Shown here: in pieces, positions 4,276-61,618 of the stretch | Layout of the letters: each line of letters starts with the position of its first letter | Numbering within the stretch: position 1 is the stretch's first letter | Assembly (NCBI GenBank): GCA_963666345.1 | Contig: OY762721.1 | Location: 3,360,001-3,424,000, forward strand | DNA: 64,000 nucleotides | Origin: Desulfatiglandales bacterium | GTDB taxonomy: Bacteria; Desulfobacterota; DSM-4660; Desulfatiglandales; Desulfatiglandaceae | Direction of reading: 5' to 3' | Program-made: the position numbers and the translations under genes | Notes under the pieces: generated by a model | Database searches by the model: none | The model's input: only the letters and a program-made list of their open reading frames with translations | Told to the model about the DNA's origin: nothing

Positions 4276-4436
4276 GATCGGGGTGTGGGGTCAAGGGTAT
4301 TCGGGCGGAAAATGTGATTTTATGCACATTATTCAGACGAAAAATGTGCATTTGCGCACAAAATACTCCCCAAAGTCATTATATTCTGTGCCTTGAACCT
4401 CACTTTTTGATAAGGATAATAAAGCAAAAGTGTAAC

Positions 4437-43888: not shown

Positions 43889-44020
43889 TGTTGATTCCCT
43901 GTCTGATCCGTCCTGTGCGAACGAGCCTTGCCGGAGGCGGGCAAGTCCACCACAGGCGTTCGATGGTTTATTCCCCCTAATCCTATGCGGGGGTTGCATT
44001 CCGGTAGTGGAAAACGCTGA
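43889..44020 (-). ncRNA. structured purL 5' leader, candidate riboswitch (class not recognised)
   Basis: 8-bp P1, two internal hairpins, a 6-bp pseudoknot and an alternative anti-SD pairing (see findings); lies between the predicted promoter and the purL start. Confidence 0.5.
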
Positions 44021-44025
44021 GACAA

Positions 44026-44054
44026 AGGGTAAATGAATTGCCCCGGTGAGTCAA
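44026..44054 (-). promoter_or_regulatory. putative sigma70 promoter of purLQ
   Basis: TTGACT (44049-44054), 17-bp spacer, TACCCT (44026-44031) on the minus strand. Confidence 0.5.
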
Positions 44055-44081
44055 TACAATTAGCCCTTGAGTTAATATGGC

Positions 44082-44097
44082 TTGAAATCCCATATTT
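44082..44097. repeat. attL core TTGAAATCCCATATTT
   Basis: Exact 16-bp direct repeat with 59461-59476, ~54 bp from the integrase stop. Confidence 0.85.
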
Positions 44098-44150
44098 TCT
44101 TACCTAATCTAAAAAAATAAATCAAATAAATTTAAGTGTTTAACTCGTTT

Positions 44151-44852
44151 TTAGTGCTTCCCGTTCCCTTCATTGCTAACGGTTTTGCTAACATTTTTCC
44201 TGAAGGTCTCTAATATCTTTATTGCCTGGATTTTGTCTTGATCGTCAATTCTGTCATACCTTGAATCCATATCTCTTGATGAATGTCCGGTGATTGACAT
44301 CCTGACAGATTTTGAAACTCCGGCCTTTCTTGCATCTGTGACAAAGGTATGCCTCAAGTCATGGAATATAAAACCACCTTTGACCCTTGATCCCCATTGA
44401 ATCCCGGCATCCTTGCAAGCCTTCATCATGGCTTTTCTGAAATAATTTATGTCTCTGTATTGAATAGAAAAAACATGATCGTCATGTATTGACCTAGGAA
44501 TCTTCTTAAGTATCTGGAAGGTCTCTTCTGATATCGGAATGCTTTTCTTTTTACTTTCCTTTGTGTCTTCAGCCTCAAGGGTTATCATTCTATGTTTTAG
44601 GTCCACCTTATCCCATGTCAGATTGACAATTTCACCTTTTCGCATCCCTGACCAGTACCCTAGGGATATAATACCTTCTAACGGTTTTTGAGAATGCTCA
44701 AAAAGGCTGCTGTATTCACTTACAGTCAATATCCTATCCCTGGCATTAGTATTTCCTTTGAGAAGTGACTTGACCCTTCTTAATGCCTTCAGTGGTTCGC
44801 CTGTTATCAGGTCGTTATCAAATGCCTTTATCACCATTGATTTCGTGTATTT
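44151..44852 (-). pseudogene. int: tyrosine integrase, catalytic domain intact but 5' part lost at the IS21 junction
   Basis: SGMRKGEI (R), TK (K), HDLRHTF (HxxR), TGH and RYD (Y). The ORF-track N-terminus MGQFWTP... is IS inverted-repeat sequence. Confidence 0.88.
44173..44198. repeat. integrase arm-type sites, left (TTGCTAAC x2)
   Basis: TTGCTAACGGTTTTGCTAACATTTTT; the same motif is tandem at 59305-59327. Confidence 0.65.
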
Positions 44853-44982
44853 TGTGAATGGTTTTTGGTTTAAGGCGGCATGCAAAAATGACCCACCTAT
44901 AGGGCGAATCGGCGTCCAAAATTGACCCACCCCTGAAAGCCTTCTATTCTGCTGTGACTATGGTAGAAGGAGGCGGAAAGGG

Positions 44983-46500
44983 ATGCTCACAGTGGAAACA
45001 ATCCGTAAGATACGATTAGCTGTTCTCAGAGATGGCAAATCCATACGTCAGACAGCGAAGGATCTGCGCCTTAGCAAAAATACAGTAAAAAAGGCGATAA
45101 GGAGCGGAGAAACATCTTTTCAGTACGAACGAAGCAACCAGCCAAGACCCAAGCTGGGGCCGTTTATAGACATGCTGAAAGGCTTTCTGGAAGAAGACGA
45201 GAAACTGCCCAAAAAACTGCGCAGGACAGCCCAGATACTTTTTGAAGAGCTGCAACTCAACGGCTACGAAGGTGGCTATGACAGCGTACGGAGATATGTT
45301 CAAAGATGGCGCCAGGATCAAAGGAGCTTGCCAAAGGAGGTATTTATACCTTTGGTATTTGATCCTGCAGAAGCCTTTCAGTTTGACTGGAGTCATGAGT
45401 GGGTAGATCTGGACGGAAGCAGAGTAAAGGCAAAGGTTGCACATATAAGGTTATGTCACAGCCGCTACTTCCTTTGTATTGCCTACCCCAGAGAAACCCA
45501 GGAGATGGTGTTTGATGCCCATATCAGGGCCTTTGAGTTTTTTGGGGGAGTTTGCCGTAAAGGCATCTATGACAATCTCAAAACAGTGGTTAACAAGATC
45601 CTGGGAGGAAGGGAAAGACAGTTCAACAGCCGCTTCAGCCAACTGTGTTCCCATTATTTATTTGAACCGGTAAGCTGCACCCCTGCTGCAGGTTGGGAAA
45701 AGGGTCAGGTGGAAAACCAGGTAGGTGTGGTCAGAAGGAGATTTTTCACTCCCCGAATCAAGGCCAGGGATTTCACACACCTAAACGAGCTGCTTAGAGA
45801 ACAATGCATCACCTGGGCAAAGACCCGTAAGCATCCAACAATATCTGATAAGACGGTTTGGCAGGTCTACAGTGAAGAGAGACCCTATCTGATAAATCTA
45901 CCACCTCTCTTTGATGGATATGCACAACGTCCAGCCAGGGTTACCCCCAGCTCACTTGTAACCTATGACCGGAACCGATACAGCGTTAATTGCAGCCAGG
46001 TGGGTAAAGCGGTCTATATGAGAGTATATGCCGATCGGATAGTGATAGTAAATAACGGTTGTATCGTAGGAGAGCATGATAGGCATTTTGGAAAGAACAA
46101 GACTATTTTTAATCCCTGGCATTATGTCCCGGTCCTTGAACGTAAGCCCGGGGCTCTCCGTAATGGAGCCCCCTTTAAAGACTGGCAACTTCCCGATCCT
46201 GTCGAAGGCGTCCTAAATGGGCTTCAAAACCGTTTTTCCGACTGGGACCGTCAGTTTGTGGCCATTCTAAATGCTGTTCCTTTCTACGGACTTGAGGCTG
46301 TAAGTAAAGCCTGTAAGGAGGCCCTAAAGATAAGGGCCGTAAGTAAAGAGGTGGTTCTCAATCTTTTAAACAGGGATCAGGATCAGGATTGCACGCCTGA
46401 TTTGGGTATCCCCTCCCATCTGATTCTCAAGCAAGAGCCCATAGCAGACTGCCGCCGCTATGAACGTTTGGTAAGGGAGGGATACCATGCTGCGCAATGA
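44983..46500 (+). CDS. istA: IS21 transposase
   Basis: N-terminal HTH; DDE triad FQFDW / YDNLK / WEKGQVE; RYSV. Confidence 0.96.
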
Positions 46501-47218
46501 TATCATGGACCAGATGGAAAAACTAAAGTTGCGGGGTATGCAGTCCATTTATGATGAAGTTGTCTCCAATGGACGCAAGAGCCATTCAACGCCTGAAAAG
46601 GTAATCCTGGAACTGCTCAAGGCTGAAGCTGCCGAAAGATATATAAGGAGTATCCGATATCGTATGGGACAGGCCAGGTTTCCTGTCCTTAAAGATATCG
46701 ATGGCTTTGATTTTAACGGGGCCTGTGTTGATGAAGCCCAGATTAGGTCTATTTATCAGGGTGATTTTATAGCCGAACATATCAACCTGATTTTTGTAGG
46801 TGGCACCGGTACGGGCAAAACCCATTTAGCCATAACTATAGCGGCCCAGGCCATAAGGAATGGCAGGAAGTGCAAGTTTTATAACCTGGTGGATCTGGCA
46901 AATGAGCTTGAGCAGGAGAAAATGATTGGATTGGCCGGCAAAATCACAGCAAGACTACTTCGATTTGATCTTGTGGTCCTCGATGAACTGGGTTATCTGC
47001 CTTTTTCCAAAAACGGCAGTCAACTGCTCTTTCATCTTATATCAAAACTCTACGAACAGACATCCATAGTAATCACCACCAACTTGACCTTCGGTGAATG
47101 GCCCCAAGTCTTTGGAGATAAAAAAATGACTACGGCCATGCTTGATCGGTTGACTCATCATTGTGAAATTATAGAAACAGGTAACGAAAGCTGGAGAATG
47201 AAACACGCAGCTTCATAG
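46487..47218 (+). CDS. istB: IS21 helper ATPase
   Basis: [33 protein letters not shown]. Confidence 0.96.
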
Positions 47219-47321
47219 ATAAAGAAGGGATCAACTACTCAACTATTTAACCATATTTTTTTCTCAGGGGTGGGTCAATTTTGGACGCCGATGATGGGTC
47301 AATTTTCAACGCCTATTGACA

Positions 47322-49423
47322 TTCAGGTAGTCGCCTACAATAGAAGGGTCTAGGACATTGATATTTCTTACTCTTAATTCGGGAGTTACGCTTTCCTTGT
47401 CTACCTGTGCCAAGTTATTCATAGGGGATACTTTCTCCGGTCCCCTTTCTCCAAATTCATAGAGTTGTCCGCTTTCCCCAATACCCTTGATATGCTCGTT
47501 TATTGTCCCGCCACCAGCCATGAACTGCACCGGGTTATCAAAATTCGGAGTAAACCCACCACTAAACATCCCGGTAATTGCGCCTGCCGCTTTACTTATC
47601 AAACCATTACCTGAAGACCCTCCGGTCAAGGTATTAAATAGCGGTTCAATGGTGTACTTCTGAAGCATCATTTGTGTAACCATTTTTGAATATGATTTCA
47701 GGATGTCATTAAAAGAGGTATCAGCACCCCAGACCATTTCATTGAGGGTGCTTGACCATGAAGAGGCCCAACCGGACATAGCGTTTTCAAGTTCATTACT
47801 CAAAGACTTGACTTCGGTCTTCTGCTTTTCATAATAGACCTCTGTTAATTGCTCTATGGCTTTCTGTTTGGCCTCTTCATCTTGAATGCTTTTTTCTATA
47901 TATTCCCGCTGTACGTCGTACCAGTCAGACAGCCTTTGTTCTTCAGTCTGGAAATGTTCATTCCATAGGGTTTGGATGTCCTTTATGGTATCGCTTTCTA
48001 AGCTGATCCTGGCTTCCCAACCTTCAATGTTAAGTTGGTTCTCCTGTCTTATCCTGTCCGCTGCGGCTGCTAGTCTTTCTATGTCTGCGTTTCTGTTTGC
48101 CTTTGAAATGAATGCCAGTTTGTCGGCCTCAGTCAGCCCGGTAACTTTTGGCTGTATTGTTTTAATGTTCGCTGCTTTAGGGGTGAAAGAGGAAAAATCC
48201 GGCTGGGAAAGCATCCAACTATCTTTGATCTTGTTAAGCTCGGCATATTGCTGTCTGTTCTGAAGGTCTGAAATGGTCTTGTCTATCAATGCAATATTAG
48301 CAGTCAGCCTTTTTGCGCCCTCTCTTGCCTCTTCTTTCGTGATATATCCCGGCACCCATGCAAGGGCCTTGTCAGTAAAGTCTGATCCTGTAGTGGCACT
48401 CTGAAACTTATTCAGTTCCTTTTGTAGGTCTTCTCGCTGTTCTTTAAGCCTACCCATGACTGTATCAGGACCATACAGAAGCCCGGCCCACCACTCAGCG
48501 GCAAAGGCAACACTACCCACCGCGCCACCAGCGGCACTACTCACCAGCTTTAAAGACTGCGCGATATTTCCCAAATAAGTTGGGATATCCTGTCTTAAAA
48601 ATTCCTGATTCTGTGCAACCCAACTGGTCATGTCTTCGGCGATTTCTGCAATGCTAGGAGCTGCGGAAATAACAGCACTCGTCATTTGTGTTTTTATAAC
48701 AGTTGATAGGTCTGTTAATCTGTCATTTGCCGTTGCTGACCCCCGGATAAGGTGTTCATCTATGGCAAGGCCAAGACGTTCAAAAGTGGCCCTTAGCTCT
48801 TCTACTGACTTCATGCCGCCCTTTACGACATTGGTCATTCCCACACCAGCCGACCGGCCAAAAGCGGCAGATGAAAAAGCGGCCTTGTCCGTTGCATTCT
48901 CAATACCGGCCATTCGGTTTATGTAAATATCAAGGGCTTCCCCGGTTGTGTTCGTGGCTACAAGCTGATTTAATAGCTCTTCATCGTATTTCTTCAGATA
49001 GGTGAGCATCGCCCCGGTACCAACCTTGAGTTCACCTATTCGCTTTGTGAATGCTTCCAGGGCTCCATCGAGTTTGCCGGTTTCAACCCCCGAACGTTCA
49101 GCCATAAACCTATATTCCTGAAGTTTATCGGTAGATATGCCTATTCTGTCTGCTGTCTTTCCGATCGTGTCAGCGGCATCAATATTTCTTTTGATCAGAT
49201 ACCCTAGACCAGTTGCACCAGCCGCTAGAACCATGCCGCTCCTGAAGTTTAAAACTGACTTTCTTAAGGAGGTCCATTGCCGTTCAGCCTTTGCAAGATA
49301 TCTGTTTGTTTTGGCTGAAAAGGAATTGACTGAGCTGGCCGCGCTTCTTAGGTCTGCTTTGAATTTATCATCATTGACAATCAGGTCAGTTACCAGACTG
49401 CCAATGTCCATTTTATTTGCCAT
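47322..49423 (-). CDS. phage tail tape-measure protein (lambda-like), extreme C-terminus cut by IS21
   Basis: N-terminal IGSLVTDL...FKADL; D.IGK.ADRIG...LQEYRF.AE.SG; Ala-rich helical/coiled-coil body; C-terminal MAGGG...GERGPE...INVLDPS. Confidence 0.82.
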
Positions 49424-49698
49424 TACGTCTCCTTTCCTTAAAAATAAGCCCCAGGATCGTTTTTTGACTTAGACATATACATATTCAACCCTAGGGTAAT
49501 ATATTAAATACAACCTCGTGCCGATTAAGGCCCATAAAAGGCGCATTTTAGTTTGACACTAGATAGAGGTTCCCCCAGGCGGCTAAGAAGGCGCAAAACC
49601 GCCCAGGGGATAGGGGGGCTGTCCAGGCCCCAACTTTCTTGTTATGACTTGGAATGCTTTTCATTATAGTGTTTTATGGATCTAGCCTCTCGCTTCCT

Positions 49699-50235
49699 TT
49701 ATTCAAAATCTTTTGCCGTCAATATTTCCGGCTCAAAATCGGCATCCTTCAATCTGCTTTTCTCCGCGTCTGTCAAAAGCCCCACTCGATCCAAGTAAGC
49801 GGCCTGTGATTCAACAATTAACCGTTCATCCGGGTTAAACTCATAGGGGTCTAATATTGGTACTCCAAAAACAAAAGATTGTGTCTCTTCAAGCGGCTCT
49901 TCATCTGGTTTTCTTTGGTAATTTTGGGGGCATTCCAAGATTTTGCGATTTCCCGGCGCTTCAAGCTGCCACCATGCAAACGGTTTTTGCCCTGGATGTT
50001 CCTTTAACCAGCTTATAACCGTTGCTGAATTTTTAATTTCAGCCCATGTTTCAAACCATGTCGGTCCTTTACCATGCCTGACTGAAGGTTCACCCGGTAT
50101 GGCCCAACAAAATGAAAAACCCCTAAAACCTTCATTTTGTGGCTCATCCCCAGTAAGTAAAAATTTCACTTGCCAATCTTCAAGGCTATTGGCGTTTACT
50201 CTTTTTCTTGTAATTTTTTTCCTTTTTGTTGGCAT
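49699..50235 (-). CDS. hypothetical phage-satellite protein
   Basis: Starts 1 bp after the terS stop, with GGAG RBS; basic N-terminus; PG.KP.AWW and ESQAAYL.R.GLL motifs. Confidence 0.7.
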   Translation of the reverse strand: MPTKRKKITRKRVNANSLEDWQVKFLLTGDEPQNEGFRGFSFCWAIPGEPSVRHGKGPTWFETWAEIKNSATVISWLKEHPGQKPFAWWQLEAPGNRKILECPQNYQRKPDEEPLEETQSFVFGVPILDPYEFNPDERLIVESQAAYLDRVGLLTDAEKSRLKDADFEPEILTAKDFE

Positions 50236-50236
50236 T

Positions 50237-50581
50237 CTAGCTCCTTCCGCCTGGCCTTCCCGGTTTGTCCCTTAGCGGTTCAATGTCCAGGTTTAAGGCC
50301 CTTAACGCGTGGAATTTTTGTCCCCTGGCATCGCGTTCAATCCCTAATAGAGGATGTAATTTTTTCTGTTGAAAACGGTCCAAAATAGTTTGACCTTCCT
50401 TTTTAATCTGCTTGCGGCATTTGATCTCTCGCGACTCTGCGTTCCCGTATTGCTGTAAAAGCAGTAATCCGGCAACATCATTAATAAGATATTCGTCAGC
50501 TAAAGATTCTATTCTTAAAACAGTCTCTTTTGGCCAATGTTTACATGGCCTCAAGTGACTTGGTACGTCATTCCAGTCCAT
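50237..50581 (-). CDS. terS: phage terminase small subunit, P27 (HK97-like cos) family
   Basis: D.AGLLLL...I.KEG.TI.DRF.Q.K.HPLL..ERDAR...L.ALNLD.EP...PGRP pattern; GAGGAG RBS. Confidence 0.72.
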   Translation of the reverse strand: MDWNDVPSHLRPCKHWPKETVLRIESLADEYLINDVAGLLLLQQYGNAESREIKCRKQIKKEGQTILDRFQQKKLHPLLGIERDARGQKFHALRALNLDIEPLRDKPGRPGGRS

Positions 50582-50717
50582 TCCATAGACTCCTCAATTT
50601 TTTTTAAGGAAAAACTCAATTTAAAAAAGAAATTCCTAGGCACATGGTTATAGGCATAGGTCGTATAAGGCTATATAGGCCCCCCTGTAAAAGGGGGGAC
50701 CGCTAAACCCGACTGGC

Positions 50718-51443
50718 TTATAGTTTGGCTAGTTTTGCGTCAATCCTTGCAACCCTTGAAGCAAGATCTTCGTCAGTTGGTAGTAAGTGAAAGGGGTTTA
50801 TGTCGGAAACATCGCGGTCAGATTTTTCAATGTTAAAGTCTTCTAGTTGGTGCGGATCTGGAATATTATCCTTAAGCTTCTCAAGCAATACTTCGTCAAA
50901 CTCTGGCTCTAGCTTCATGGCCTCAAGCAACTTGATAGATTGCTGACAGTATTCTACAGCTCTCAATATAGAATTTTTGTTGCTATAGGTAACTAGCTTC
51001 TTTTTCAGCTTGATTAAATTTAAGCCCATGTTTCGTGTTTGGCTATTGGCTTTCAACCTTCGGAAGTCAGCTAGCTTGGTATTAAAAAACTCAATCCCCC
51101 GGTCAATTTCAGGATCGTAAGTTGTATAAATAATTTCCTGCCACTTGTTTATAGCATTGTTCAACCTCGCACTCTCACCCCATTTTTTTAATCGCAACCT
51201 GTTCACTTCCTTTTCTGCATCTCTTAGGGCATCTGCTGCGGAATTCATAGTCTGTGTCGCTTTTTCAAGATCGTCATTAAGTTTGAAAATCCTCTTTTCT
51301 CCTTCCGTCTTCAGCTTGTCGATTTCCTTTGCTGCCGCCTTTCGTTTTTTAATGACTTCGCGTTCTGCTGCTTCCCGCGCTGCTCTTATTCCTGCTGATT
51401 CTTCAATCTCCTTAAGCCTTTTCTCTAATGCTGTGTTTTCCAT
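50718..51443 (-). CDS. coiled-coil hypothetical protein
   Basis: ATG 51443 after GGAGG; E/K/A-rich heptad-like N-terminal half. Confidence 0.75.
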   Translation of the reverse strand: MENTALEKRLKEIEESAGIRAAREAAEREVIKKRKAAAKEIDKLKTEGEKRIFKLNDDLEKATQTMNSAADALRDAEKEVNRLRLKKWGESARLNNAINKWQEIIYTTYDPEIDRGIEFFNTKLADFRRLKANSQTRNMGLNLIKLKKKLVTYSNKNSILRAVEYCQQSIKLLEAMKLEPEFDEVLLEKLKDNIPDPHQLEDFNIEKSDRDVSDINPFHLLPTDEDLASRVARIDAKLAKL

Positions 51444-51472
51444 AATGCCTCCATTTTGTTTAGTGTTTTTGT

Positions 51473-51670
51473 TTATAAAGCCCCACATCTTTTAAGGATC
51501 TTCTTTCGGCGTATATTTGCCTGCAGTCTCTTTGCTCTTTTACGGTCTGATTTTTTGGGGTTTTTCAACCTTTCAGAGAGGGTCTTGAAACTGCCGTCTT
51601 TCTCAACTTTTTTCCTAAGTTTCAAGATCGCTAATCGAAGGTCACTTTTCCCCACCTTGACGCTAAGCAT
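51473..51670 (-). CDS. rpsU: ribosomal protein bS21 homologue (65 aa), element-encoded
   Basis: MLSVKVGKSDLRLAILKLRKKVEKDGSFKTLSERLKNPKKSDRKRAKRLQANIRRKK follows the S21 pattern (VKV...A..K.KK..EK.G...K.S..RKRAK); ATG 51670 after GGAAGGGA. Confidence 0.7.
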   Translation of the reverse strand: MLSVKVGKSDLRLAILKLRKKVEKDGSFKTLSERLKNPKKSDRKRAKRLQANIRRKKILKRCGAL

Positions 51671-51740
51671 AACTATCCCTTCCAGGCATCGCTTGCCTTT
51701 TGTGTGCTGTTCAGTGTTAATTGTATAATTGATAAGAGAT

Positions 51741-51944
51741 TTAATTTTGGGAGTAGGGAAGGGATTCAATAAACTTTCTGACATCAACGGAGTCAAATAG
51801 AACTCGGCGGCCTAACCGCTTGGCCTTGATAGGAAAAGGGTTCTTTGCTTTACGACAAATCCTATTTCGTATGGTGCGCGGTGAAAGGTTTAATCTATTG
51901 GCAACCTGTTCAACTGATAACAGTTGCCGCTGCTCCTGGCTCAT
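51741..51944 (-). CDS. AlpA/excisionase-like HTH DNA-binding protein
   Basis: LLSVEQVANRLNLSPRTIRN...FP....LGRRVLF...DV.KFI. Confidence 0.85.
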   Translation of the reverse strand: MSQEQRQLLSVEQVANRLNLSPRTIRNRICRKAKNPFPIKAKRLGRRVLFDSVDVRKFIESLPYSQN

Positions 51945-52119
51945 GACGCCCCCCTTTGGTTAAATTGTTATTGTTGACAAGACATCGGAAACACTTATTC
52001 TTAAGAATCCTTTTTAATACCTCGTAACCCTTTGTATTATCAGATTCAGTTAGACCCTGAATCCTAACGCTTTCAATCGGACATCCTTTGTCTGATTTAC
52101 ATTCAAAAGTTATTTCCAA
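51910..52119 (-). CDS. small hypothetical protein (69 aa, Cys-containing)
   Basis: TTG at 52119 after AGGAGG; lies in the co-oriented operon between primase and AlpA. Confidence 0.5.
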   Translation of the reverse strand: MEITFECKSDKGCPIESVRIQGLTESDNTKGYEVLKRILKNKCFRCLVNNNNLTKGGRHEPGAAATVIS

Positions 52120-52217
52120 GAATCCACCTCCTTTAATTGTTTTTAGCCCCTGTTCTAATTTTTTATTGCCCGCCCGTTCCCGGTCCCCGGAGCTAGCGAA
52201 GGACCACACCAAATATG

Positions 52218-53834
52218 TTATTTATGCCATTTATCTGTTGGCACAATTTCGCACCCCTTAACGATCTTAAAAGTTCGCTTTAGGTAATTTGGGTTATGTC
52301 CCTGCCTTGCCCAGGCTTTAGCCTTCCTGATTGTGATAATGGTTCCGTCTGGCGGATTCTGGTCAAGATTTAGATAAAGCCTCGGTTTCTCAAGGCCAAA
52401 GTCTCCGCCCCGCCCCTCTGCCTTATCTTGTGACTTCTGAAGACATACAATGCAGATTCCTTTGTCTAGCTTTTCATATATCCGCTTTAGGTCCGCCGAT
52501 ATCTTCCAGAAGTCAGAGCTAATTTCATAAAAGTCAATTATATTGAAGTCATTCGGTAGGATTGCATCTGAGAAGTTTGAGGACCTTTCCCTGAAGTCAA
52601 GAGACTTCCATTCATCAAGAGGTACAGGAAACAGCTTTAATCTTGTCTTTAGTTCCTGACTTCCCATTTCTGAGGAAAGATAACGCACCTTGTGGCGCTT
52701 CCTGTTCATATAGGCAAGGTTTAAGGCAAGGGCGCTTTTGCCTGCGTTTTGGGTCCCTGCGATTACAGCAATGTTTTTAGGATATAGCGTTGCAAGTTTT
52801 TCGATCCCTAGAGGCCATTGAATATTAAAGGGTGCATCATCTGCCGTTTGCCAGTCTATGGCATCGCATTCAGACTCAACCTTTCGATACTGCCCGCGCT
52901 TGTTTCCGTATTTCTCAATTATTCCTTCTGCCTTGAGTCTTGACAAATAGACCTTTACAGCGTTTCTTTCTTCCCTTGTTACTATCTGTAACTCTTTGTA
53001 ACTATCTGTTACTAAAAAGTAACCATCTGTTACTAACACCCACTCGCGGACCTCTTCAGCAAGGTTCCTCTCGCGCCTCTGTAACCTTTTCATGGCTGAT
53101 TGAATTTTTACTGAAATATCTCTTTCAGGATATGGAGGATTGCAGGCTTTTGATGCTATAACCCTAAGATATTGCTGTATTTCTTCTTGAGGCATCCCGC
53201 CTTTTACAAGATAATTGGTAAGGTGAAAAAGGTCATTATCACGACGGCCTTGTGTAAGTAAATTGTTACTATCTGTTACTATTTGTAACCTTTTGTTACT
53301 ATCTGGACTGGACCCCTCTATATAAATGCTTTTATTTAAAGAATTATATATAGGCTGCGGCAGCGGCTCGGTTTGAACCTCGCCTAATGACTTACCCGGT
53401 ACCCAGGCATAAGGCTTGCCGTTTTCTCCAATGCTTGGAGGTGCGACGATATATCCGCCCTGACCCCGGTAATCGACATCTTGAATAAAGCCTGTTGCAT
53501 TGCCTAGGCCCTCTCTATGACTAACGTATAAATGCCGACCTCCGCGCGGCGTTGTCGCTTCTGCCGTTTTAAACCCTTCAGGAAGTAGCTTTGTGACCTC
53601 AGAAAAGCCCTTGCCTGAATCAATGTCTATGACATCAACATTGCTTAGATCACCTGTGACAATGCCGATATTTGCATCAGGCCACTTTTGCCACCATTCA
53701 TTGACTTGATCCGTAGTCGGCCTTTCTTTTTGGAATTTTTCCCATTTGACTAGGGGCTTTTTGCCCTTTGCCTGAATGGGAATTACTGAAAGCCCTGCGC
53801 TTTCATACCTTAAGGCATCGTTTGAAAAGTTCAT
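52218..53834 (-). CDS. bifunctional primase-polymerase (Prim-Pol + PriCT) fused to a P-loop helicase
   Basis: G.SVIP...K.P.V.W, WW..WPDANIG..TG...VIDID, TPRGG.H, D.RG.GGYIVAPPS; QGRRDNDLF (PriCT); Walker A GTQNAGKS; IIDF. Confidence 0.9.
   Translation of the reverse strand: MNFSNDALRYESAGLSVIPIQAKGKKPLVKWEKFQKERPTTDQVNEWWQKWPDANIGIVTGDLSNVDVIDIDSGKGFSEVTKLLPEGFKTAEATTPRGGRHLYVSHREGLGNATGFIQDVDYRGQGGYIVAPPSIGENGKPYAWVPGKSLGEVQTEPLPQPIYNSLNKSIYIEGSSPDSNKRLQIVTDSNNLLTQGRRDNDLFHLTNYLVKGGMPQEEIQQYLRVIASKACNPPYPERDISVKIQSAMKRLQRRERNLAEEVREWVLVTDGYFLVTDSYKELQIVTREERNAVKVYLSRLKAEGIIEKYGNKRGQYRKVESECDAIDWQTADDAPFNIQWPLGIEKLATLYPKNIAVIAGTQNAGKSALALNLAYMNRKRHKVRYLSSEMGSQELKTRLKLFPVPLDEWKSLDFRERSSNFSDAILPNDFNIIDFYEISSDFWKISADLKRIYEKLDKGICIVCLQKSQDKAEGRGGDFGLEKPRLYLNLDQNPPDGTIITIRKAKAWARQGHNPNYLKRTFKIVKGCEIVPTDKWHK
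52977..53352. repeat. iteron arrays plus AT-rich tract (putative replication origin within the primase gene)
   Basis: TGT(T/A)ACTATC-like units at 10-11 bp spacing: six at 52977-53037 and four at 53264-53303, followed by an AT-rich tract at ~53319-53352. Confidence 0.65.
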
Positions 53835-53901
53835 TTTGTTCTAGCTCCTATCCCGGACACTCCGCCCGGAAGTTGGCTTTCAAGAAGCTCGGAGTTAGGT
53901 G

Positions 53902-54096
53902 TTAAAAAACCTCTTTTTCACTGACCCCCAGGAAATGACAGATTTTTTCCTTCATTTCCTGCGTGGGCGTTTCGTACCCTCGGATAACCTTTGAAACTCG
54001 GCTTTCTGCAATCCGTGTTTGAAATGCCAAATCTCTTTGGCTTACACCCTTCAGAAAAATTGCATTCCGTAACTTGATATTTCTTTCAGTTTCCAT
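53902..54096 (-). CDS. XRE-family HTH regulator
   Basis: LRNAIFLKGVSQRDLA...ESRVSKVIRG...ICHFLGV...VF; ATG 54096 after GGAGG. Confidence 0.85.
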   Translation of the reverse strand: METERNIKLRNAIFLKGVSQRDLAFQTRIAESRVSKVIRGYETPTQEMKEKICHFLGVSEKEVF

Positions 54097-54358
54097 GATC
54101 ACCTCCCTTAAATAAATATTGTTTGAATCTACGGTAAAAAAACATTTCTCCTTCCCGTCATTGACAATTTAGACAAAATTATCTGTTTTATCTTGTCAAT
54201 TTGGTATCTTATCCGCCTATGCGGATAAATCATACCCGGCCCCGATACTCTACTAGCTATCTGCTTATAGGTAAGTGGTGGATCTCCATAAAAAAGACTT
54301 AGGCATTTGTTTTGAAGTTAGGTTCTGGGGAAGGAGAAATATCAGACAGATATAAACG

Positions 54359-54940
54359 ATAAATCAAATTACTGATTTATATGAATCAAAAAAAAGACTG
54401 TTAAAGAATGCCTTCCGCTATGGCGTTGAGGTTGACAAGTAGAAGAGACCTTCGATTACCTAGCTTATGGGTAAGCTCTCTGTGTTTATGTGAACGATGA
54501 ACCTTGATATGCTCCGACACTTCCACTGTGTACCATTCATTAGTGTTGCCGATAAAATTGTTGGGGTCTAGGAAATCGAAATTCGGTTCGTTTCTAAATT
54601 CTTTGTATAGTTGAAAAAATCTCTTTATCTTGCGGAACTCAATGTTTAATTCGGCCAGTTCTTTAATTAATGCTAACTCTAGTAAGTTCCTTTTTGTATA
54701 TCTGCGGGGGACACCTCTTCCAGGCTGCTTGCTGTCTTCTTCAAGCGTCAACAGCCCTTCATCTGAATAGAACTGTATCCGTCGCCCTGGTAGGCCAATA
54801 AGTTTTTCAATATCTTTTCGGGTGTATGTTTCCATAATTTAAAAGTCGTAATCAGATTTATGATTTATAATAAAGTAAAAAAAATATATGTCAAGCGCTA
54901 ATGCTGCATTGATGGGCCATAAATCAGATTAATGGTTATT
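54359..54940. promoter_or_regulatory. three ATAAATCA-N6-TGATTTAT operator-like palindromes around the MerR-like gene
   Basis: Perfect copy at 54359-54380; variants at 54847-54868 and 54919-54940. Confidence 0.5.
54401..54835 (-). CDS. MerR-like winged-HTH regulator
   Basis: YT.KDI..LIGL..RRIQFY..EGLL...GRG..RRYT..NL.EL.LIKEL. Confidence 0.82.
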   Translation of the reverse strand: METYTRKDIEKLIGLPGRRIQFYSDEGLLTLEEDSKQPGRGVPRRYTKRNLLELALIKELAELNIEFRKIKRFFQLYKEFRNEPNFDFLDPNNFIGNTNEWYTVEVSEHIKVHRSHKHRELTHKLGNRRSLLLVNLNAIAEGIL

Positions 54941-56402
54941 CCCTTTCACTAATAAGCATAAATTCCTAAAATGTTATATATCTTATTGATATTAAATCCA
55001 AATTAGTCAATGGGCGTTTTTACGAAAAAACCGTGTTCTGTGTACTCGTCTTTATATTTTGAAAAGTCTATTCTGTCTTCAGGGTAATTTCTTGGCATTA
55101 AATCATATTCTCGGCCTAGATCCAGACTTTTAAGCTTTGCACAGGTCCCGCACTGTTCTTTCGGTAATCCATGAATACAGAGAAAGCAGAAAGATTCTGG
55201 CCCATTGCTTGAATTATCTAAATAACGCCGCTCAATAAATAAATTGTCCTTATCGAATCTTTTCAGAATATCATCGGCTTGGGTTATGTTGTTTACCAAA
55301 AACCCCTGGCAAACCTGGCTCCGCTTGCCTACTTCATTGTTTATAAGCAAAAGGGAATAGCCATCTGTTCCACAAGAAGTCGTTCTAAAGAACTTTAGAA
55401 ATTTATACAAGCCTTGCTGTATGTATGGGGTGCATTCCTTGCACTTTGCCGATCCAACATCCCTGTGACATAAATCACATAGTAAGCCCCTGGAGCTTTG
55501 TCCCTTTCTTGTGTCTGTCTTTTCAGGTTCTTTATATTTTAATGCAAGGCTTGCTTCAATAAAACTTCCCTGTTCAATGGTTAATTTAAACGGGTCTGAT
55601 TCCCCCCTAGATCCTATTGATTCTAACCCGTTATCAATAAGGGTCTGCCCCGGTTTTTCTCCTGTTCCCCTGTCAATTTTACCAAACACTTCAAAAAGTT
55701 CTTTATCATCAAACTTATCATTATATTGATTATATGAAAATTCCGGTTTCCAGTTTTCCTCATCAAAAGGTTTTTGCTTTGGCATCGCACGGACACCGAT
55801 TAACCAAAAAATCTTCATCATTCTATGTAAGCTGATTCTGTTTTTTATGTACCTTAAAGGATCTTGAAGTAGTGGGATAGCTTCGCCATTTACAGCAAGC
55901 ATCTTTCCCTTATCGGCTCTAAGTGCATAATGAAAGGCGTAATCACAATTATATTTTGTCCCCAGCCCGGCAAGTTTTTTTCTGCTCGCTTTATTTAACG
56001 GGTCCCTATTCATAAAAGCATAAAGGGGCAGACAGGGGATAAGCGCATCTTTCAAACCTGTATGCTTGCATAGATCTTTGAAAAATCTCTTTAGGTATGG
56101 CTTTTTTGTCAAAGATCCATCTTTTATTTTTTTTCTTTTTGCAGATTGAATTAAGTTATCAACCTTTTTTGTATCAACCTCCATTAAATATGCTGCGTCT
56201 GGATATTTATACTTTTGACCATAAACTAAATTTAAGGCCATGTTTTCTTGAATGGAAAGCCCTTCAATGTTAGCCCATTCGGTTCTATTGTGAATCGGCA
56301 TGCAAAAATGACCCACCTATAGGGCGAATCGGCGTCCAAAATTGACCCACCCCTGAAAGCCTTCTATTCTGCTGTGACTATGGTAGAAGGAGGCGGAAAG
56401 GG

Positions 56403-57920
56403 ATGCTCACAGTGGAAACAATCCGTAAGATACGATTAGCTGTTCTCAGAGATGGCAAATCCATACGTCAGACAGCGAAGGATCTGCGCCTTAGCAAAAA
56501 TACAGTAAAAAAGGCGATAAGGAGCGGAGAAACATCTTTTCAGTACGAACGAAGCAACCAGCCAAGACCCAAGCTGGGGCCGTTTATAGACATGCTGAAA
56601 GGCTTTCTGGAAGAAGACGAGAAACTGCCCAAAAAACTGCGCAGGACAGCCCAGATACTTTTTGAAGAGCTGCAACTCAACGGCTACGAAGGTGGCTATG
56701 ACAGCGTACGGAGATATGTTCAAAGATGGCGCCAGGATCAAAGGAGCTTGCCAAAGGAGGTATTTATACCTTTGGTATTTGATCCTGCAGAAGCCTTTCA
56801 GTTTGACTGGAGTCATGAGTGGGTAGATCTGGACGGAAGCAGAGTAAAGGCAAAGGTTGCACATATAAGGTTATGTCACAGCCGCTACTTCCTTTGTATT
56901 GCCTACCCCAGAGAAACCCAGGAGATGGTGTTTGATGCCCATATCAGGGCCTTTGAGTTTTTTGGGGGAGTTTGCCGTAAAGGCATCTATGACAATCTCA
57001 AAACAGTGGTTAACAAGATCCTGGGAGGAAGGGAAAGACAGTTCAACAGCCGCTTCAGCCAACTGTGTTCCCATTATTTATTTGAACCGGTAAGCTGCAC
57101 CCCTGCTGCAGGTTGGGAAAAGGGTCAGGTGGAAAACCAGGTAGGTGTGGTCAGAAGGAGATTTTTCACTCCCCGAATCAAGGCCAGGGATTTCACACAC
57201 CTAAACGAGCTGCTTAGAGAACAATGCATCACCTGGGCAAAGACCCGTAAGCATCCAACAATATCTGATAAGACGGTTTGGCAGGTCTACAGTGAAGAGA
57301 GACCCTATCTGATAAATCTACCACCTCTCTTTGATGGATATGCACAACGTCCAGCCAGGGTTACCCCCAGCTCACTTGTAACCTATGACCGGAACCGATA
57401 CAGCGTTAATTGCAGCCAGGTGGGTAAAGCGGTCTATATGAGAGTATATGCCGATCGGATAGTGATAGTAAATAACGGTTGTATCGTAGGAGAGCATGAT
57501 AGGCATTTTGGAAAGAACAAGACTATTTTTAATCCCTGGCATTATGTCCCGGTCCTTGAACGTAAGCCCGGGGCTCTCCGTAATGGAGCCCCCTTTAAAG
57601 ACTGGCAACTTCCCGATCCTGTCGAAGGCGTCCTAAATGGGCTTCAAAACCGTTTTTCCGACTGGGACCGTCAGTTTGTGGCCATTCTAAATGCTGTTCC
57701 TTTCTACGGACTTGAGGCTGTAAGTAAAGCCTGTAAGGAGGCCCTAAAGATAAGGGCCGTAAGTAAAGAGGTGGTTCTCAATCTTTTAAACAGGGATCAG
57801 GATCAGGATTGCACGCCTGATTTGGGTATCCCCTCCCATCTGATTCTCAAGCAAGAGCCCATAGCAGACTGCCGCCGCTATGAACGTTTGGTAAGGGAGG
57901 GATACCATGCTGCGCAATGA
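56403..57920 (+). CDS. istA: IS21 transposase
   Basis: Protein identical to 44983-46500. Confidence 0.96.
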
Positions 57921-58638
57921 TATCATGGACCAGATGGAAAAACTAAAGTTGCGGGGTATGCAGTCCATTTATGATGAAGTTGTCTCCAATGGACGCAAGA
58001 GCCATTCAACGCCTGAAAAGGTAATCCTGGAACTGCTCAAGGCTGAAGCTGCCGAAAGATATATAAGGAGTATCCGATATCGTATGGGACAGGCCAGGTT
58101 TCCTGTCCTTAAAGATATCGATGGCTTTGATTTTAACGGGGCCTGTGTTGATGAAGCCCAGATTAGGTCTATTTATCAGGGTGATTTTATAGCCGAACAT
58201 ATCAACCTGATTTTTGTAGGTGGCACCGGTACGGGCAAAACCCATTTAGCCATAACTATAGCGGCCCAGGCCATAAGGAATGGCAGGAAGTGCAAGTTTT
58301 ATAACCTGGTGGATCTGGCAAATGAGCTTGAGCAGGAGAAAATGATTGGATTGGCCGGCAAAATCACAGCAAGACTACTTCGATTTGATCTTGTGGTCCT
58401 CGATGAACTGGGTTATCTGCCTTTTTCCAAAAACGGCAGTCAACTGCTCTTTCATCTTATATCAAAACTCTACGAACAGACATCCATAGTAATCACCACC
58501 AACTTGACCTTCGGTGAATGGCCCCAAGTCTTTGGAGATAAAAAAATGACTACGGCCATGCTTGATCGGTTGACTCATCATTGTGAAATTATAGAAACAG
58601 GTAACGAAAGCTGGAGAATGAAACACGCAGCTTCATAG
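57907..58638 (+). CDS. istB: IS21 helper ATPase
   Basis: Protein identical to 46487-47218. Confidence 0.96.
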
Positions 58639-59304
58639 ATAAAGAAGGGATCAACTACTCAACTATTTAACCATATTTTTTTCTCAGGGGTGGGTCAATT
58701 TTGGACGCCGATGATGGGTCAATTTTCAACGCCTATTGACAATTCTATTGGCTTCTATCAGATCGCTTAAATCAAAATTAGCAGTATCGCTAGCATCTAA
58801 TAACGGACCATACCTAGCTTCTGTGTCTCTAAATCTTTTATTTAAACCGTGGTTAACATATTTCCTTTTTGAATTACACATTACCCATGTCAGTGTTCGA
58901 TCTTCAAAATCATTTTCAGTTGTTGTAGTTGAAAATCTCTTGAATCTGCGCGCTGCTTTCCGATTGCAAGTATCATATCTTTCACAAGTAAAACCTTTTG
59001 CCTTGCAAGGCTTCCTGATTGTTGGCTCTTTCTTGGGGATATTTGGTTCTGTGTCTGTCTGATTGATTTTAACTGTTGGAGGTCTATTTATAGGATATAG
59101 CCAATCCTTGTAGTCATTTTCAGGCATATATAGAGATTTCCGCTTTTCGTTGGCTGGTTTCCAGCGGGTCATATCAGCCCAAAAAGTATCAGCTATGTCA
59201 GTTAATTTAAAGATAACATACCCCCATACAACCAGTTTAAGGGCCACACAATAAAACTCAAGAAAAATCAAAACGCTATTGTAAGAAATCTGGTTCATAG
59301 TCAG

Positions 59305-59366
59305 CATTTTGCTAACATTTTGCTAACACTTGGCGGAAAATACCCCCCTATGTCACCTTATGTCAC
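59305..59366. repeat. integrase arm-type/accessory sites, right
   Basis: CATTTTGCTAA x2 (59305-59326) and TATGTCAC x2 (59349-59366), inside the element near attR. Confidence 0.65.
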
Positions 59367-59460
59367 TAGGTATCATATAGGCATTTAACTTACTGAATTA
59401 ATTTAAGAATAACGTTAAATTTGACTTATTTAAGCAAAGGAAAGAAAATGTTTATGCGGG

Positions 59461-59476
59461 TTGAAATCCCATATTT
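59461..59476. repeat. attR core TTGAAATCCCATATTT
   Basis: Exact direct repeat of 44082-44097. Confidence 0.85.
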
Positions 59477-59803
59477 CAATGAATATATTCCTGCATACGC
59501 ACCAAAGGGCGTCAATGGGAAAGAGTAAAAAACCGGGCCCGGAGGGTCGGGAATAGGGTTACCCCTGAAAAGAGCAGGCTGCTATGCAGGGCATTTTAAG
59601 ATGCCTAAAGGTAAGTGCCCGGCATTCATAAAATTAAGGAACCCTGCAAGGTCAAGAAACGGCTGAGTGGATCCGATCCTCATTTAGGCAGTTTTAGCTT
59701 TTGAGCATTACAGGTACTTCGATTCATTCGGGGATAGCGATTTATCAGGCCTGGGTCAAAGGACCAAGTATTCTATAATGAAATAAAATATAGGTGGTAA
59801 AAT

Positions 59804-61618
59804 ATGGATGGATATGAAATTACACTTGAGGATTCCCGTGACGGGGAACTTCCTGATCAGAAAGAGCTTGAGAAGGAACTGGGTGATTATCTTTCAAAGA
59901 AGTATGGAAACAGGGTAAAGATAATGTCGCCACTCGTGTTTCCGAAAAATGATGAACTGTCAACGGAACAGTCAGGAGGGGAAGGCGGAGGAGTTCTGGC
60001 CGATTTCGACCTTCTGCCTGAAGAACTTGAAAGTTATCTCCAGAGTTTTGTGGTAAAGCAGGATGACGCAAAGGCTGTTTTGTCCACAAAGGTGTGTACC
60101 CATTTCAACAGGATTAAACATTTCAAAAAACTGAAATCAAGGAAGAACGGATCCGGTGTCGGAATGATCAAGAACAATGTGTTGATGATCGGACCGACCG
60201 GAGTGGGAAAGACATATATTATAAAACTTATCGCCGAAAAACTTGGTGTCCCGTTTGTAAAGGGAGATGCCACCAAATTCAGCGAAACCGGATATGTGGG
60301 AGGTGATGTCGAGGACCTTGTACGCGATCTTGTTTATGAGGCGGATGAAGACATCGAACTTGCGGAAAACGGTATAATCTATATCGATGAGATAGACAAA
60401 ATCTCGTCATCTCAGAATATCATAGGCCACGATGTGTCAAGGACCGGAGTTCAGAGGGCTCTGCTGAAACCCATGGAAGAGACGGACGTGGATCTCAAGG
60501 TAGCCCATGATCCGATCTCTCAGATACAGGCCATAGAGCAGTACCGAAGGACGGGGAAAAAGGAAAAAAAGGTCGTAAATACCAAAAATATCCTTTTTAT
60601 AATGAGTGGTGCCTTTGGTGAACTCACCAAGATAATAAGAAAGAGGCTTCAGAGTCAGGGTATAGGTTTTGAGGCGGATGTGAGACCAGCGGAGATCCCC
60701 TGGGAGATTCTCAAGGAGACAACCGCCCAGGATCTTGTAGAATTCGGGTTTGAATCGGAATTTGTCGGCAGGCTTCCGGTTATCGTGGTCTTTGATGAAT
60801 TGAAAAAGGAAGATCTGTTTGAAATCCTCAAAAATCCGAATAATCCTATTGTCATAAGCAAGCGTCTCGATTTCGGGGCCTACGGAATAGACATGGAATT
60901 TGAAGAAGAGGCCCTGAGCAGGATAGCCGACCTTGCAGCCATTGAAACGACCGGGGCCAGGGGGATAGTGAGCGCGGTTGAAAGGACACTGATACCTTTT
61001 GAAAAGAGGCTTCCATCGACAGATATGAATAAATTTCTGGTTACCCCTGAACTGGTTGATGATCCTCATTGCTACCTGGACTGGTTGATAAATAACCCTG
61101 ATAATGAGGATACGTGCCTAAGATTCGACAAGGCGAGGGAAAAACAACTCGCCCATATAAGGGAATATATCCTGGAAAGGGCGGAGGAGCTGGGCAGAAG
61201 ACTCGGTATGGAGATTTACGATAAGAGGGTGGACCTGATAGCCGTGCTCAGCATGAAAACGCCGTCGGCCATAACAAAGGCGATAGATGATTTCCGCCAG
61301 ATGTATAACGAGGTAAGGATTGAGGAGTCATCGCTGGTGGAAAGCCTTGAGGTGAATTTTTCCTTTGATGACAGCGCAATTGATGAGATAGTCGGAAAGG
61401 CCATCGAGACAGGTCAGCAGGCCGGGGAACTCGCCATGCAGGTGGTAAAAAGGCTCGAGTATGGGCTTAAGCTTGTGAAAGACAGATCCGGCATGGATGA
61501 GTTCACCATAAACGATGAGGCCGTGCGGGACATGGAAAATTTTATAAACAGGCTTATTAAGATTTACTACAGACAGGATTACGAACCGGTACGTGAATCA
61601 GAGGAAAAAGGAGACTGA
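59804..61618 (+). CDS. ClpX-like AAA+ ATPase (no N-terminal Zn finger, C-terminal extension)
   Basis: GPTGVGKT, DATKFSETGYVGGDVE, YIDEIDK, DVSRTGVQ.ALLK, IGF loop, EFVGRLP, TGARG. Confidence 0.88.
   Translation: MDGYEITLEDSRDGELPDQKELEKELGDYLSKKYGNRVKIMSPLVFPKNDELSTEQSGGEGGGVLADFDLLPEELESYLQSFVVKQDDAKAVLSTKVCTHFNRIKHFKKLKSRKNGSGVGMIKNNVLMIGPTGVGKTYIIKLIAEKLGVPFVKGDATKFSETGYVGGDVEDLVRDLVYEADEDIELAENGIIYIDEIDKISSSQNIIGHDVSRTGVQRALLKPMEETDVDLKVAHDPISQIQAIEQYRRTGKKEKKVVNTKNILFIMSGAFGELTKIIRKRLQSQGIGFEADVRPAEIPWEILKETTAQDLVEFGFESEFVGRLPVIVVFDELKKEDLFEILKNPNNPIVISKRLDFGAYGIDMEFEEEALSRIADLAAIETTGARGIVSAVERTLIPFEKRLPSTDMNKFLVTPELVDDPHCYLDWLINNPDNEDTCLRFDKAREKQLAHIREYILERAEELGRRLGMEIYDKRVDLIAVLSMKTPSAITKAIDDFRQMYNEVRIEESSLVESLEVNFSFDDSAIDEIVGKAIETGQQAGELAMQVVKRLEYGLKLVKDRSGMDEFTINDEAVRDMENFINRLIKIYYRQDYEPVRESEEKGD

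Follow-up and report, generated by a model that had tools for sequence, protein, structure and literature searches.

The window analysed here, 64,000 nucleotides of the Desulfatiglandales bacterium contig OY762721.1 (positions 3,360,001 to 3,424,000), contains an integrated element at positions 44082–59476 that probably belongs, in decayed form, to a family of small integrative phage satellites. Judging by its gene content and its relatives, the hallmark of this family would be a P27-type small terminase subunit (TerS) gene followed by a free-standing gene of a large unannotated family, designated h178. The satellite assignment is preferred over that of a prophage remnant because the relatives of the element are small and lack the large terminase subunit (TerL), and because the juxtaposition of the TerS/h178 pair with a gene for a tape-measure protein (TMP) recurs among them.

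The element is flanked by a 27-nt direct repeat (44071–44097 and 59450–59476, identical at 23 of 27 positions), within which a 16-nt core, TTGAAATCCCATATTT, is present in two exact copies, at 44082–44097 (left att core) and 59461–59476 (right att core). An empty integration site was found in a marine-sediment metagenome, run X3, which comes from another study than do the runs with the element. A 7,485-nt contig of this run (depth ∼101) matches 43157–44097 with one letter different, diverges from the window right after 44097, and continues with 30 letters that correspond exactly to window positions 59477–59506. Since this contig represents an empty attB, 44098–59476 is a discrete insertion of 15,379 bp. 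The crossover is located in the 16-nt core, and a near-identical population without the element exists. The direct repeat and the empty site in X3 bear out the original prediction that the element is att-flanked. The insertion site is positioned between purL (40895–43999, minus strand) and an AAA+ gene (59804–61618), and the G+C content (GC) is 0.36–0.47 within the element and 0.49–0.55 outside. A tRNA or other non-coding RNA gene as the integration target was rejected, as the window contains no tRNA or tmRNA and 43000–60500 gave no Rfam match with E ≤ 1. Despite the empty site in the main contig, 9% of the sampled words of 47322–52322 (TerS to TMP) are present in run X3, which may contain a related element or a minority with the element. 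No RNA run was listed as containing that same stretch. The open reading frame (ORF) and family scans placed all native ORFs on the minus strand and in the predicted order, and subtraction of two insertion sequence (IS) copies and one target duplication gives an IS-free length of 10,473 bp (15,379 − 2,446 − 2,453 − 7), in agreement with the ∼10.5 kb expected.

The TerS gene (50237–50581, minus strand; P27/Terminase_4 type) and the h178 gene (49699–50235, minus strand; 178 aa), a conserved gene immediately 3′ of TerS, are 1 nt apart. h178 itself has no Pfam or NCBIfam match, and none of 37 aligned members of its family matched a PHROG. The family is large: a full HMMER scan identified 681 cluster representatives with E ≤ 1e-3, 30 of them at ≤ 1e-10, and the best 150 of the 681 are 78–265 aa long. 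The association with TerS is conserved, with a TerS-profile ORF located immediately upstream of the h178-family ORF in 50 of the 68 loci that had at least 400 nt of upstream sequence. The origin of h178 is indicated by four phage-like contigs of two kinds, in which the h178 domain forms the N-terminal 120–155 residues of TerL. The h178 profile matches residues 2–155 of a 740-aa TerL in L086 and L087 (L086:3550–5772) and residues 11–124 of a 673-aa TerL in L151 and L152 (L151:674–2695). The genes of these h178-bearing TerL proteins have TerS ahead and a portal gene after them, and in L086 the ATPase domain begins at approximately residue 260. Because the same domain opens phage TerL proteins, h178 is interpreted as a free-standing TerL N-terminal domain. 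In phage lambda, the N-terminus of gpA binds the small terminase subunit. From this parallel, together with the conserved gene position, we infer that h178 contacts TerS, and it could act as an adaptor or a decoy. A prediction of the complex between TerS and h178 returned a score of 0.01, which counts neither way. The structure model of h178 itself is confident (pLDDT 85.9, pTM 0.79). The best hits in searches with this model had an E of 0.6 in BFVD and a Z of 2.4 among 48,161 PDB representatives, which does not imply a novel fold, and the h178 profile had no match among PDB sequences (best E 0.8).

The element thus has the attributes of a small integrative TerS/h178 element, i.e. the adjacent pair, an integrase and a replication gene nearby, and no TerL. 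To define the company that such pairs keep, a survey was made of the 22 loci in which an h178-family gene stands alone and the downstream sequence extends for 3 kb or more. TerL was present in none of them, an integrase in 17, a major capsid protein (MCP) in five, a TMP in two (L163 and L179), and a portal protein in one. The relatives of the Prim-Pol, TerS and integrase proteins all belong to elements of ∼8–13 kb. Intact relatives in the form of 35–50-kb prophages with TerL and the like, which the original prediction had set against its own reading, were not seen: the kin are ∼8–13 kb in size, with TerL in 0 of 22 loci. Its description of the element as capsid-less holds for this copy but does not extend to the kin, in which an HK97-type capsid gene is located beside TerS in five of the 22 loci and also in L181. 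In locus L157, a large serine recombinase (L157:9273–10955; phrog_95, 2.3e-90) follows TerS and h178 and replaces the tyrosine integrase. A 940-aa ORF is found near the kin locus in L176, and other large ORFs are located near some of the kin loci.

Relatives of individual proteins of the element gave a similar picture. TerS relatives with 38–52% identity were found in five other genomes of 209 in the order and in several in the phylum. Their settings are small elements with an integrase and a varying primase (Prim-Pol+AAA_25, Toprim+DUF3987, DUF3631, D5-like or DnaB), often with an HK97-type capsid gene, and these contexts in genomes of the order and phylum contain no TerL or portal gene. L081 has the closest integrase (49% identity) and a layout as in the element, with Prim-Pol, TerS, a capsid gene, and int at the 3′ end. 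Strong relatives of Prim-Pol (41–44% identity, E 1e-110 to 1e-135) are present in four of the 60 related genomes searched; a single-protein scan of genome contigs gave only one weak locus. In L012 and L014, the Prim-Pol relatives are part of one-strand arrays composed of XRE, Prim-Pol, an ERCC4-type nuclease, an AlpA-like protein and, in the last position, a tyrosine integrase; these arrays span 5.5–6.2 kb from Prim-Pol to int and contain no TerS or TMP. The closest Prim-Pol (48% identity) is found in the IMG/VR contig L181, where it is followed by TerS, an h178-like protein, an S78 protease and the HK97-type capsid gene. The capsid gene of L181 is split into two ORFs (3893–4729 and 4737–5264), which may reflect a frameshift or a sequencing error.

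The TMP gene (47322–49423, minus strand) codes for ∼700 native residues, matches phrog_9483 (1.1e-27) and nine other TMP PHROGs, and has a strong Shine-Dalgarno sequence 5 nt ahead of its ATG. A scan of viral contigs with this single protein returned no locus. TMP genes in the corresponding position were found in the two kin loci mentioned above. L163 is an IS-free metagenome contig of 10,245 bp that encodes TerS, an h178-like protein, proteins of 97, 341 and 101 aa, and an 813-aa TMP (phrog_8462, 2.8e-63; Tape_meas_lam_C, 1e-25). Past the TMP, it contains ORFs of 116, 63 and 244 aa, a full-length 397-aa integrase, XRE, AlpA and iterons. This contig is the type of relative that the original prediction had called for, an IS-free element of ∼10–15 kb with a TMP near a full-length integrase. 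Its iterons, three to four copies of a ∼23-nt repeat (L163:9986–10104), are located after XRE and AlpA at the contig end, consistent with a replication origin and with a template that is circularly permuted or concatemeric. The IMG/VR contig L179 encodes DnaB, an HNH protein, a TerS that is 50% identical to that of the element, an h178-like protein, an HK97-gp10-like protein and a 729-aa TMP. Right after the TMP, an MmeI-type restriction-modification gene (L179:6833–9952; 1,039 aa) is present and the GC falls from 0.58–0.60 to 0.51–0.52; this gene could be cargo or part of a neighbouring island. Neither L163 nor L179 has a Pfam match for capsid, portal or TerL. Based on these comparisons, elements of this kind seem to carry a TMP as one option among several virion cargos.

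The points that weigh against this reading concern the TMP, the family scores of two of the proteins, the reach of the survey, the host genome and the insertion sequences. The nearest relatives of the TMP in IMG/VR (59%, 47% and 44% identity over the N-terminal ∼290 aa) are all located in complete siphovirus modules (TerL, portal, protease, MCP, tube, chaperone, TMP and minor tail), and no other gene of the element was found on the 46 IMG/VR contigs with TMP relatives. By this comparison, the TMP derives from the phage tail gene pool. In addition, the TMP region has a GC of 0.45–0.47, as compared with 0.40–0.44 for the TerS-to-Prim-Pol part. Because of its siphovirus relatives and slightly higher GC, the TMP could be a recent capture. 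The TMPs of L163 and L179 are only 22–24% identical to that of the element. Taken further, a recent capture would mean that the satellite backbone is real but that the TMP gene, part of a siphovirus tail module, was acquired by recombination shortly before the insertion sequences hit and is a mere passenger with no role in the life cycle. It would agree with the absence of a detectable tail-assembly chaperone gene upstream of the TMP, with the 275-nt non-coding gap between h178 and the TMP, and with the fact that most kin have a capsid gene or nothing at this position. We nevertheless regard the passenger explanation as unlikely, since L163 and L179 independently place a full-length TMP after TerS/h178 without head genes, the TMP gene of the element has stayed open for ∼700 codons and retains its strong ribosome-binding site, and satellites that use their own TMP have been published (PMC12987554, partial text). 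Within the gap between h178 and the TMP, a G+C-rich hairpin (GGGGCC..GGCCCC) is present at 49600–49640, which could be a terminator, an attenuator or a packaging signal.

Two of the family assignments are sub-threshold when each protein is taken by itself. TerS matches Terminase_4 with an E of 0.002 and 19 bits, below the 24.7-bit cut-off. Several of its relatives score above the cut-off (26–36 bits), and the alignment revealed a conserved C-terminal tail that is common to the TerS of the element and all its relatives, so its identity is credible only through these relatives. The bS21-like ORF (51473–51670, minus strand; 65 aa, the longest frame extending to 51796) reaches 11.7 bits with Pfam PF01165 (threshold of 27; E 0.21) and 12.9 bits with TIGR00030 (threshold of 28.95; E 0.073). 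The matches cover positions 1–54 of 55 of the Pfam model and 2–57 of 58 of TIGR00030. The ORF was not listed by the family scan of the whole genome, a word-based homologue search returned only the query, and its BLASTP alignment with the host bS21 has 33% identity over 33 residues.

The assignment of this ORF was borne out through profiles of its relatives. In L081 and L083, a small ORF is located shortly before TerS. These ORFs can be aligned to both the bS21-like ORF and the host bS21 (13 columns are invariant), and they match the Pfam bS21 model with E values of 0.015 and 2.2e-4, respectively. When a profile was built from the three satellite ORFs, the host bS21 was the only other match among 27,190 genome ORFs (E 4.9e-9). 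With only the L081 and L083 ORFs in the profile, the host bS21 came first (2.2e-4) and the ORF of the element second (6.3e-3). The ORF is therefore accepted, on the strength of these alignments, as a divergent bS21 homologue common to at least three related elements, and the ribosomal protein named in the original prediction stands, though its signal is weak when the ORF is considered alone. Phage-encoded bS21 is already known (PMC6375957 and PMC9723584, both partial texts). Those cases and the present one are alike in that a mobile element of viral type carries a bS21 homologue; they differ in that the carrier here is a satellite-type element of ∼10 kb and the homologue is much more divergent. 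Literature that pairs phage satellites with bS21 was not found in a search that left most of the subscription literature outside.

The survey has its own limit, in that the MCP, TerL and portal profiles were home-made from 3–7 sequences, and other families can escape them. In the host genome, no match was found to Phage_capsid, Phage_portal, TerL_ATPase, Terminase_6N or GpA_ATPase, so no resident helper is visible.

The present state of the element was shaped by two copies of an IS21-family insertion sequence, both on the plus strand. IS-A is located at 44876–47321 (istA 44983–46500, istB 46487–47218) and IS-B at 56289–58741, and a 2,446-bp block is identical between 44876–47321 and 56296–58741. 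The encoded proteins are IstA (505 aa, with rve and Mu-transposase C domains) and IstB (243 aa). The features of the IS21 family are all present, namely the matches to IstB_IS21 (PF01695, 6.9e-74) and rve (2.8e-9), terminal inverted repeats and a short target duplication. The genome contains 15 full-length copies, eight of which are identical. Comparison of their flanks indicated that the true left end is 7 nt further out and that the true length is 2,453 bp, with a TGTGAAT start in 14 of the 15 copies. IS-B is complete and is bordered by a 7-bp target duplication (56282–56288/58742–58748, identical at 6 of 7 positions). IS-A is the sole copy of the 15 that lacks the TGTGAAT tip, and it has no target duplication.

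The intact right end of IS-A cuts the TMP gene five codons ahead of its present stop, so that the last ∼20–30 residues of the TMP are replaced by five IS-derived codons, and its left side, which is truncated, directly joins the middle part of the integrase gene. When the TMP was aligned with five homologues and the integrase with full-length relatives, the deletion beside IS-A proved to have taken ∼20–30 C-terminal residues of the TMP and ∼145 N-terminal residues of the integrase. In this region, an IS first inserted close to where the TMP gene ends, and a deletion then extended from the IS tip into int. The junction confirms the caveat of the original prediction that DNA of unknown amount was lost between the TMP and int. 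A capsid gene could have gone with this deletion. The heptamer TGTGAAT, identical to the tip absent from IS-A, occurs at 44853–44859, 16 nt left of the IS-A junction and inside integrase coding sequence that aligns with relatives; this could be chance or reflect a target preference. Relative to the window, contigs of the source runs have eight extra letters at 44853–44856, near the int/IS-A junction (at full depth in X2; at a depth of 4.3 of ∼14–29 in X1), and the X1 contigs also break at 44853. These letters reflect either heterogeneity or an assembly difference.

The IS-A junction, which proves at least one deletion of unspecified size, is also the starting point for a further explanation, that the element is a deletion remnant of an ordinary temperate siphovirus whose head and other tail genes were lost through IS-mediated and other deletions. 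Target duplications of 6–8 bp are visible in seven of the 15 IS copies of the genome and missing from the other eight, so IS-linked rearrangement seems to be frequent in this genome. Two of the copies (411625–414070 and 414470–416915) are merely 400 bp apart. A phage origin by reduction is also hinted at by the ordinary phage type of the TMP and by L163, in which the 101-aa ORF matches the last 63 positions of a portal PHROG (E 6.5e-9). However, the remnant explanation requires that a further deletion, without a scar, took place precisely between h178 and the TMP, and the same juxtaposition is found in L163 and L179. It is also at odds with the complete lack of TerL in the 22 informative TerS/h178 loci, and with kin that are all ∼8–13 kb in size and share the layout observed here, a one-strand array with the integrase at the 3′ end. 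Finally, the size of the free-standing h178 is maintained among the best 150 of the 681 representatives, which would not be expected for random TerL debris. The remnant explanation is accordingly considered improbable. Least probable of all is that the element is an integrative replicon or defence island whose transfer does not depend on a helper and whose TerS, h178 and TMP are mainly decoys that poison the packaging or tail assembly of invading phages: h178 resembles a detached TerL docking domain and would be a plausible inhibitor, and interference with tail assembly by mobile elements has been published (PMC11364771 and PMC10884400, both partial texts), but a full-length TMP and a TerS with a conserved C-terminal tail are what a transferred element needs, kin with capsid, protease or portal genes fit particle formation, and interference and transfer are compatible with each other.

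The satellite reading is completed by the remaining genes of the element, all on the minus strand. The first of them was split by IS-B. When IS-B and one copy of its target duplication are removed, the ORFs 58742–59307 and 55003–56288 become one open frame of 614 codons, while removal of 6 or 8 nt in place of 7 leads to stops at codon 187 or 204. Because removal of the duplication restores the frame, the 193-aa and 437-aa ORFs are one gene that was split by a simple insertion of IS-B. Its N-terminal part corresponds to 58742–59307, and its C-terminal 427 codons (55003–56288) contain a weak sigma-70 region-4-like helix-turn-helix (HTH) and Cys-rich motifs. The sigma4-like HTH protein of the original prediction was thus right with respect to the weak HTH and wrong as a separate gene, as it is part of the 614-aa gene. 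A word-based homologue search with the C-terminal part returned only the query. The alternative that ORF 58726–59307 is the N-terminus of the integrase, with a composite transposon inside int, was rejected, since a separate target duplication borders IS-B and the ORF forms one continuous frame with the 437-aa ORF.

Two regulators follow, a MerR-family protein (54401–54835; MerR_1, 1.3e-10), whose gene is preceded by an 11/12 match to a sigma-70-like promoter (54894–54867), and an XRE/Cro-type HTH protein (53902–54102; HTH_3, 8e-9). The replication protein (52218–53834) combines Prim-Pol (Pfam, 1.6e-32), PriCT_1 and a DnaB-like P-loop domain, and its relatives have 41–48% identity. Eight of the nine occurrences of the iteron TGT[TA]ACT in the window are located inside its gene, in two clusters (52977–53034 and 53264–53300) with 10-nt phasing, and these clusters are likely the replication origin. 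The next genes encode a 100-aa protein without a match in the family scans (51910–52212) and an AlpA/excisionase-type HTH_17 protein (51741–51944; Pfam, 4.5e-9; phrog_66, 2e-9). Between the bS21-like ORF and TerS is the gene of the coiled-coil protein cc256 (50718–51488; 256 aa), which has no family match and for which the structure model is of low confidence (pLDDT 64, pTM 0.25). Its homologues (32–34% identity) are located just downstream of TerS and h178 in two loci (L084:8666–9472 and L098:2202–3044), which suggests that cc256 is a third recurrent gene of this element type. Only the C-terminal catalytic part of the tyrosine integrase is present (44151–44875; Phage_integrase, 1.3e-20; phrog_1, 2.1e-38). 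Its catalytic motifs align throughout with full-length relatives, and its identity to the L081 integrase is 49%. Among the ORFs of the element, there was no Pfam, PHROG or NCBIfam match for TerL, portal, capsid, tail-tube, lysis or tail-assembly chaperone proteins. With the N-terminal third of the integrase missing, the first gene split and the TMP clipped, this copy is most likely locked in the chromosome; by its gene structure, it is probably immobile and unable to excise alone. The locus clearly illustrates the inactivation of a mobile element by an active IS21-family element.

When compared with known satellites, the element shows features of phage-inducible chromosomal islands (PICIs). 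In Gram-negative PICIs, int and alpA are located at the 5′ end and are followed by pri-rep and a packaging gene. The element resembles them in its size class, att flanks, tyrosine integrase, AlpA, own primase with an origin, and small-terminase-type packaging gene. It is likewise an att-flanked island of ∼8–18 kb with a tyrosine integrase (truncated here), AlpA and a primase with an origin. It departs from the PICI definition in that int and alpA are not ahead of the primase (the integrase is at the 3′ end and alpA comes after the primase) and in that a virion structural gene is present, the ∼700-aa TMP; h178 and the bS21-like ORF are further additions. Capsid-forming PICIs (cf-PICIs) carry TerL, portal, protease, MCP and connector genes together. 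Their packaging genes are of the same HK97/P27 kind, and kin of the element have HK97-type capsid, protease or portal genes, but none of TerL, portal, protease, MCP or connectors was found in the element itself, and none of the 22 kin loci contains TerL. P4 is not known to carry TerS or a TMP; what it has in common with the element is a primase-helicase whose gene harbours origin repeats, together with a tyrosine integrase and a small HTH regulator. No family match annotated as sid, psu or delta was present among the ORFs of the element, and no search for cos was made.

The PICI-like elements (PLEs) of Vibrio cholerae have a different integrase and replication set, in contrast to the tyrosine integrase, Prim-Pol, TerS, h178 and siphovirus-type TMP of the element. 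PLE11 exchanges the TMP, chaperone and hub of phage ICP1 for its own versions, which leads to shorter chimeric tails, and putative tmp genes are also described in PLE-like elements and some cf-PICIs (PMC12987554, partial text). A satellite-encoded TMP is thus common to PLE11 and the element. PLE11 builds chimeric tails from helper parts, and of the three PLE components (TMP, tail-assembly chaperone and baseplate hub) the element has the TMP only. The EPIPs of Mycolicibacterium aichiense are satellites of ∼11 kb with TerS, MCP, scaffold, adaptor, serine integrase and TMP (PMC12822802). They are similar to the element in their size, in the combination of a small terminase with a TMP, and in the lack of tail-tube or lysis genes. 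They differ in their serine integrase, MCP, scaffold, and head–tail adaptor and stopper, and they were isolated as free particles; the element has a tyrosine integrase, Prim-Pol, h178 and the bS21-like ORF, with no MCP or scaffold found. The original prediction, that a TMP and a ribosomal protein make the element unlike the PICI, cf-PICI, P4 and PLE gene sets, did not hold with respect to the TMP, given PLE11, cf-PICIs (PMC12987554, partial text) and EPIPs (PMC12822802). Its broader judgment, a satellite type rather than a prophage remnant, is upheld by the kin but not in its uniqueness, as satellite TMPs have already been published, so that the element differs from the known satellites only in part. 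What is new is the TerS/h178 pair as the signature of a broad group of small, probably helper-dependent elements with swappable virion cargo, the TerL-domain origin of h178, and the bS21 homologue.

By analogy, the mode of action of the element would come closest to that of a PICI-type packaging hijacker that also substitutes tail components in the manner of PLEs. In the proposed mechanism, replication of a helper siphovirus would lead to excision of an intact element and its replication from the iterons. TerS together with h178 would then direct the helper TerL to satellite DNA or keep it off the helper DNA, the satellite TMP would replace that of the helper and give rise to chimeric tails as in PLE11, and the bS21-like protein would bias translation. 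A more far-reaching proposal, which we put forward tentatively and hold to be possible rather than probable, is that TerS and the detached TerL N-terminal domain mark a large, unnamed, cross-phylum class of satellites, in which a constant packaging-hijack pair is combined with swappable cargo (capsid, protease, portal or TMP). As a packaging factor of a new kind, h178 would dock on TerS and either recruit or block the helper TerL, and some members would reprogramme ribosomes with their own bS21.

In practical terms, a P27-type TerS followed by the h178 domain is a marker for finding such elements, and h178 is a concrete candidate for a novel means by which phage terminases are hijacked or blocked. 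The bS21 homologue in three small satellites would extend tampering with ribosomes from large phages to elements of ∼10 kb. A search of the literature, with most of the subscription literature outside its reach, found nothing that pairs phage satellites with Desulfobacterota. Satellites that remodel tails as well as capsids were first shown experimentally in 2026, for the PLEs of cholera phages. In summary, the element appears, from comparison with its kin, to belong to a wider and so far unnamed group of such parasites, and the locus and its kin suggest that the tail-remodelling strategy is also used in anaerobic sediment bacteria, on a different backbone.

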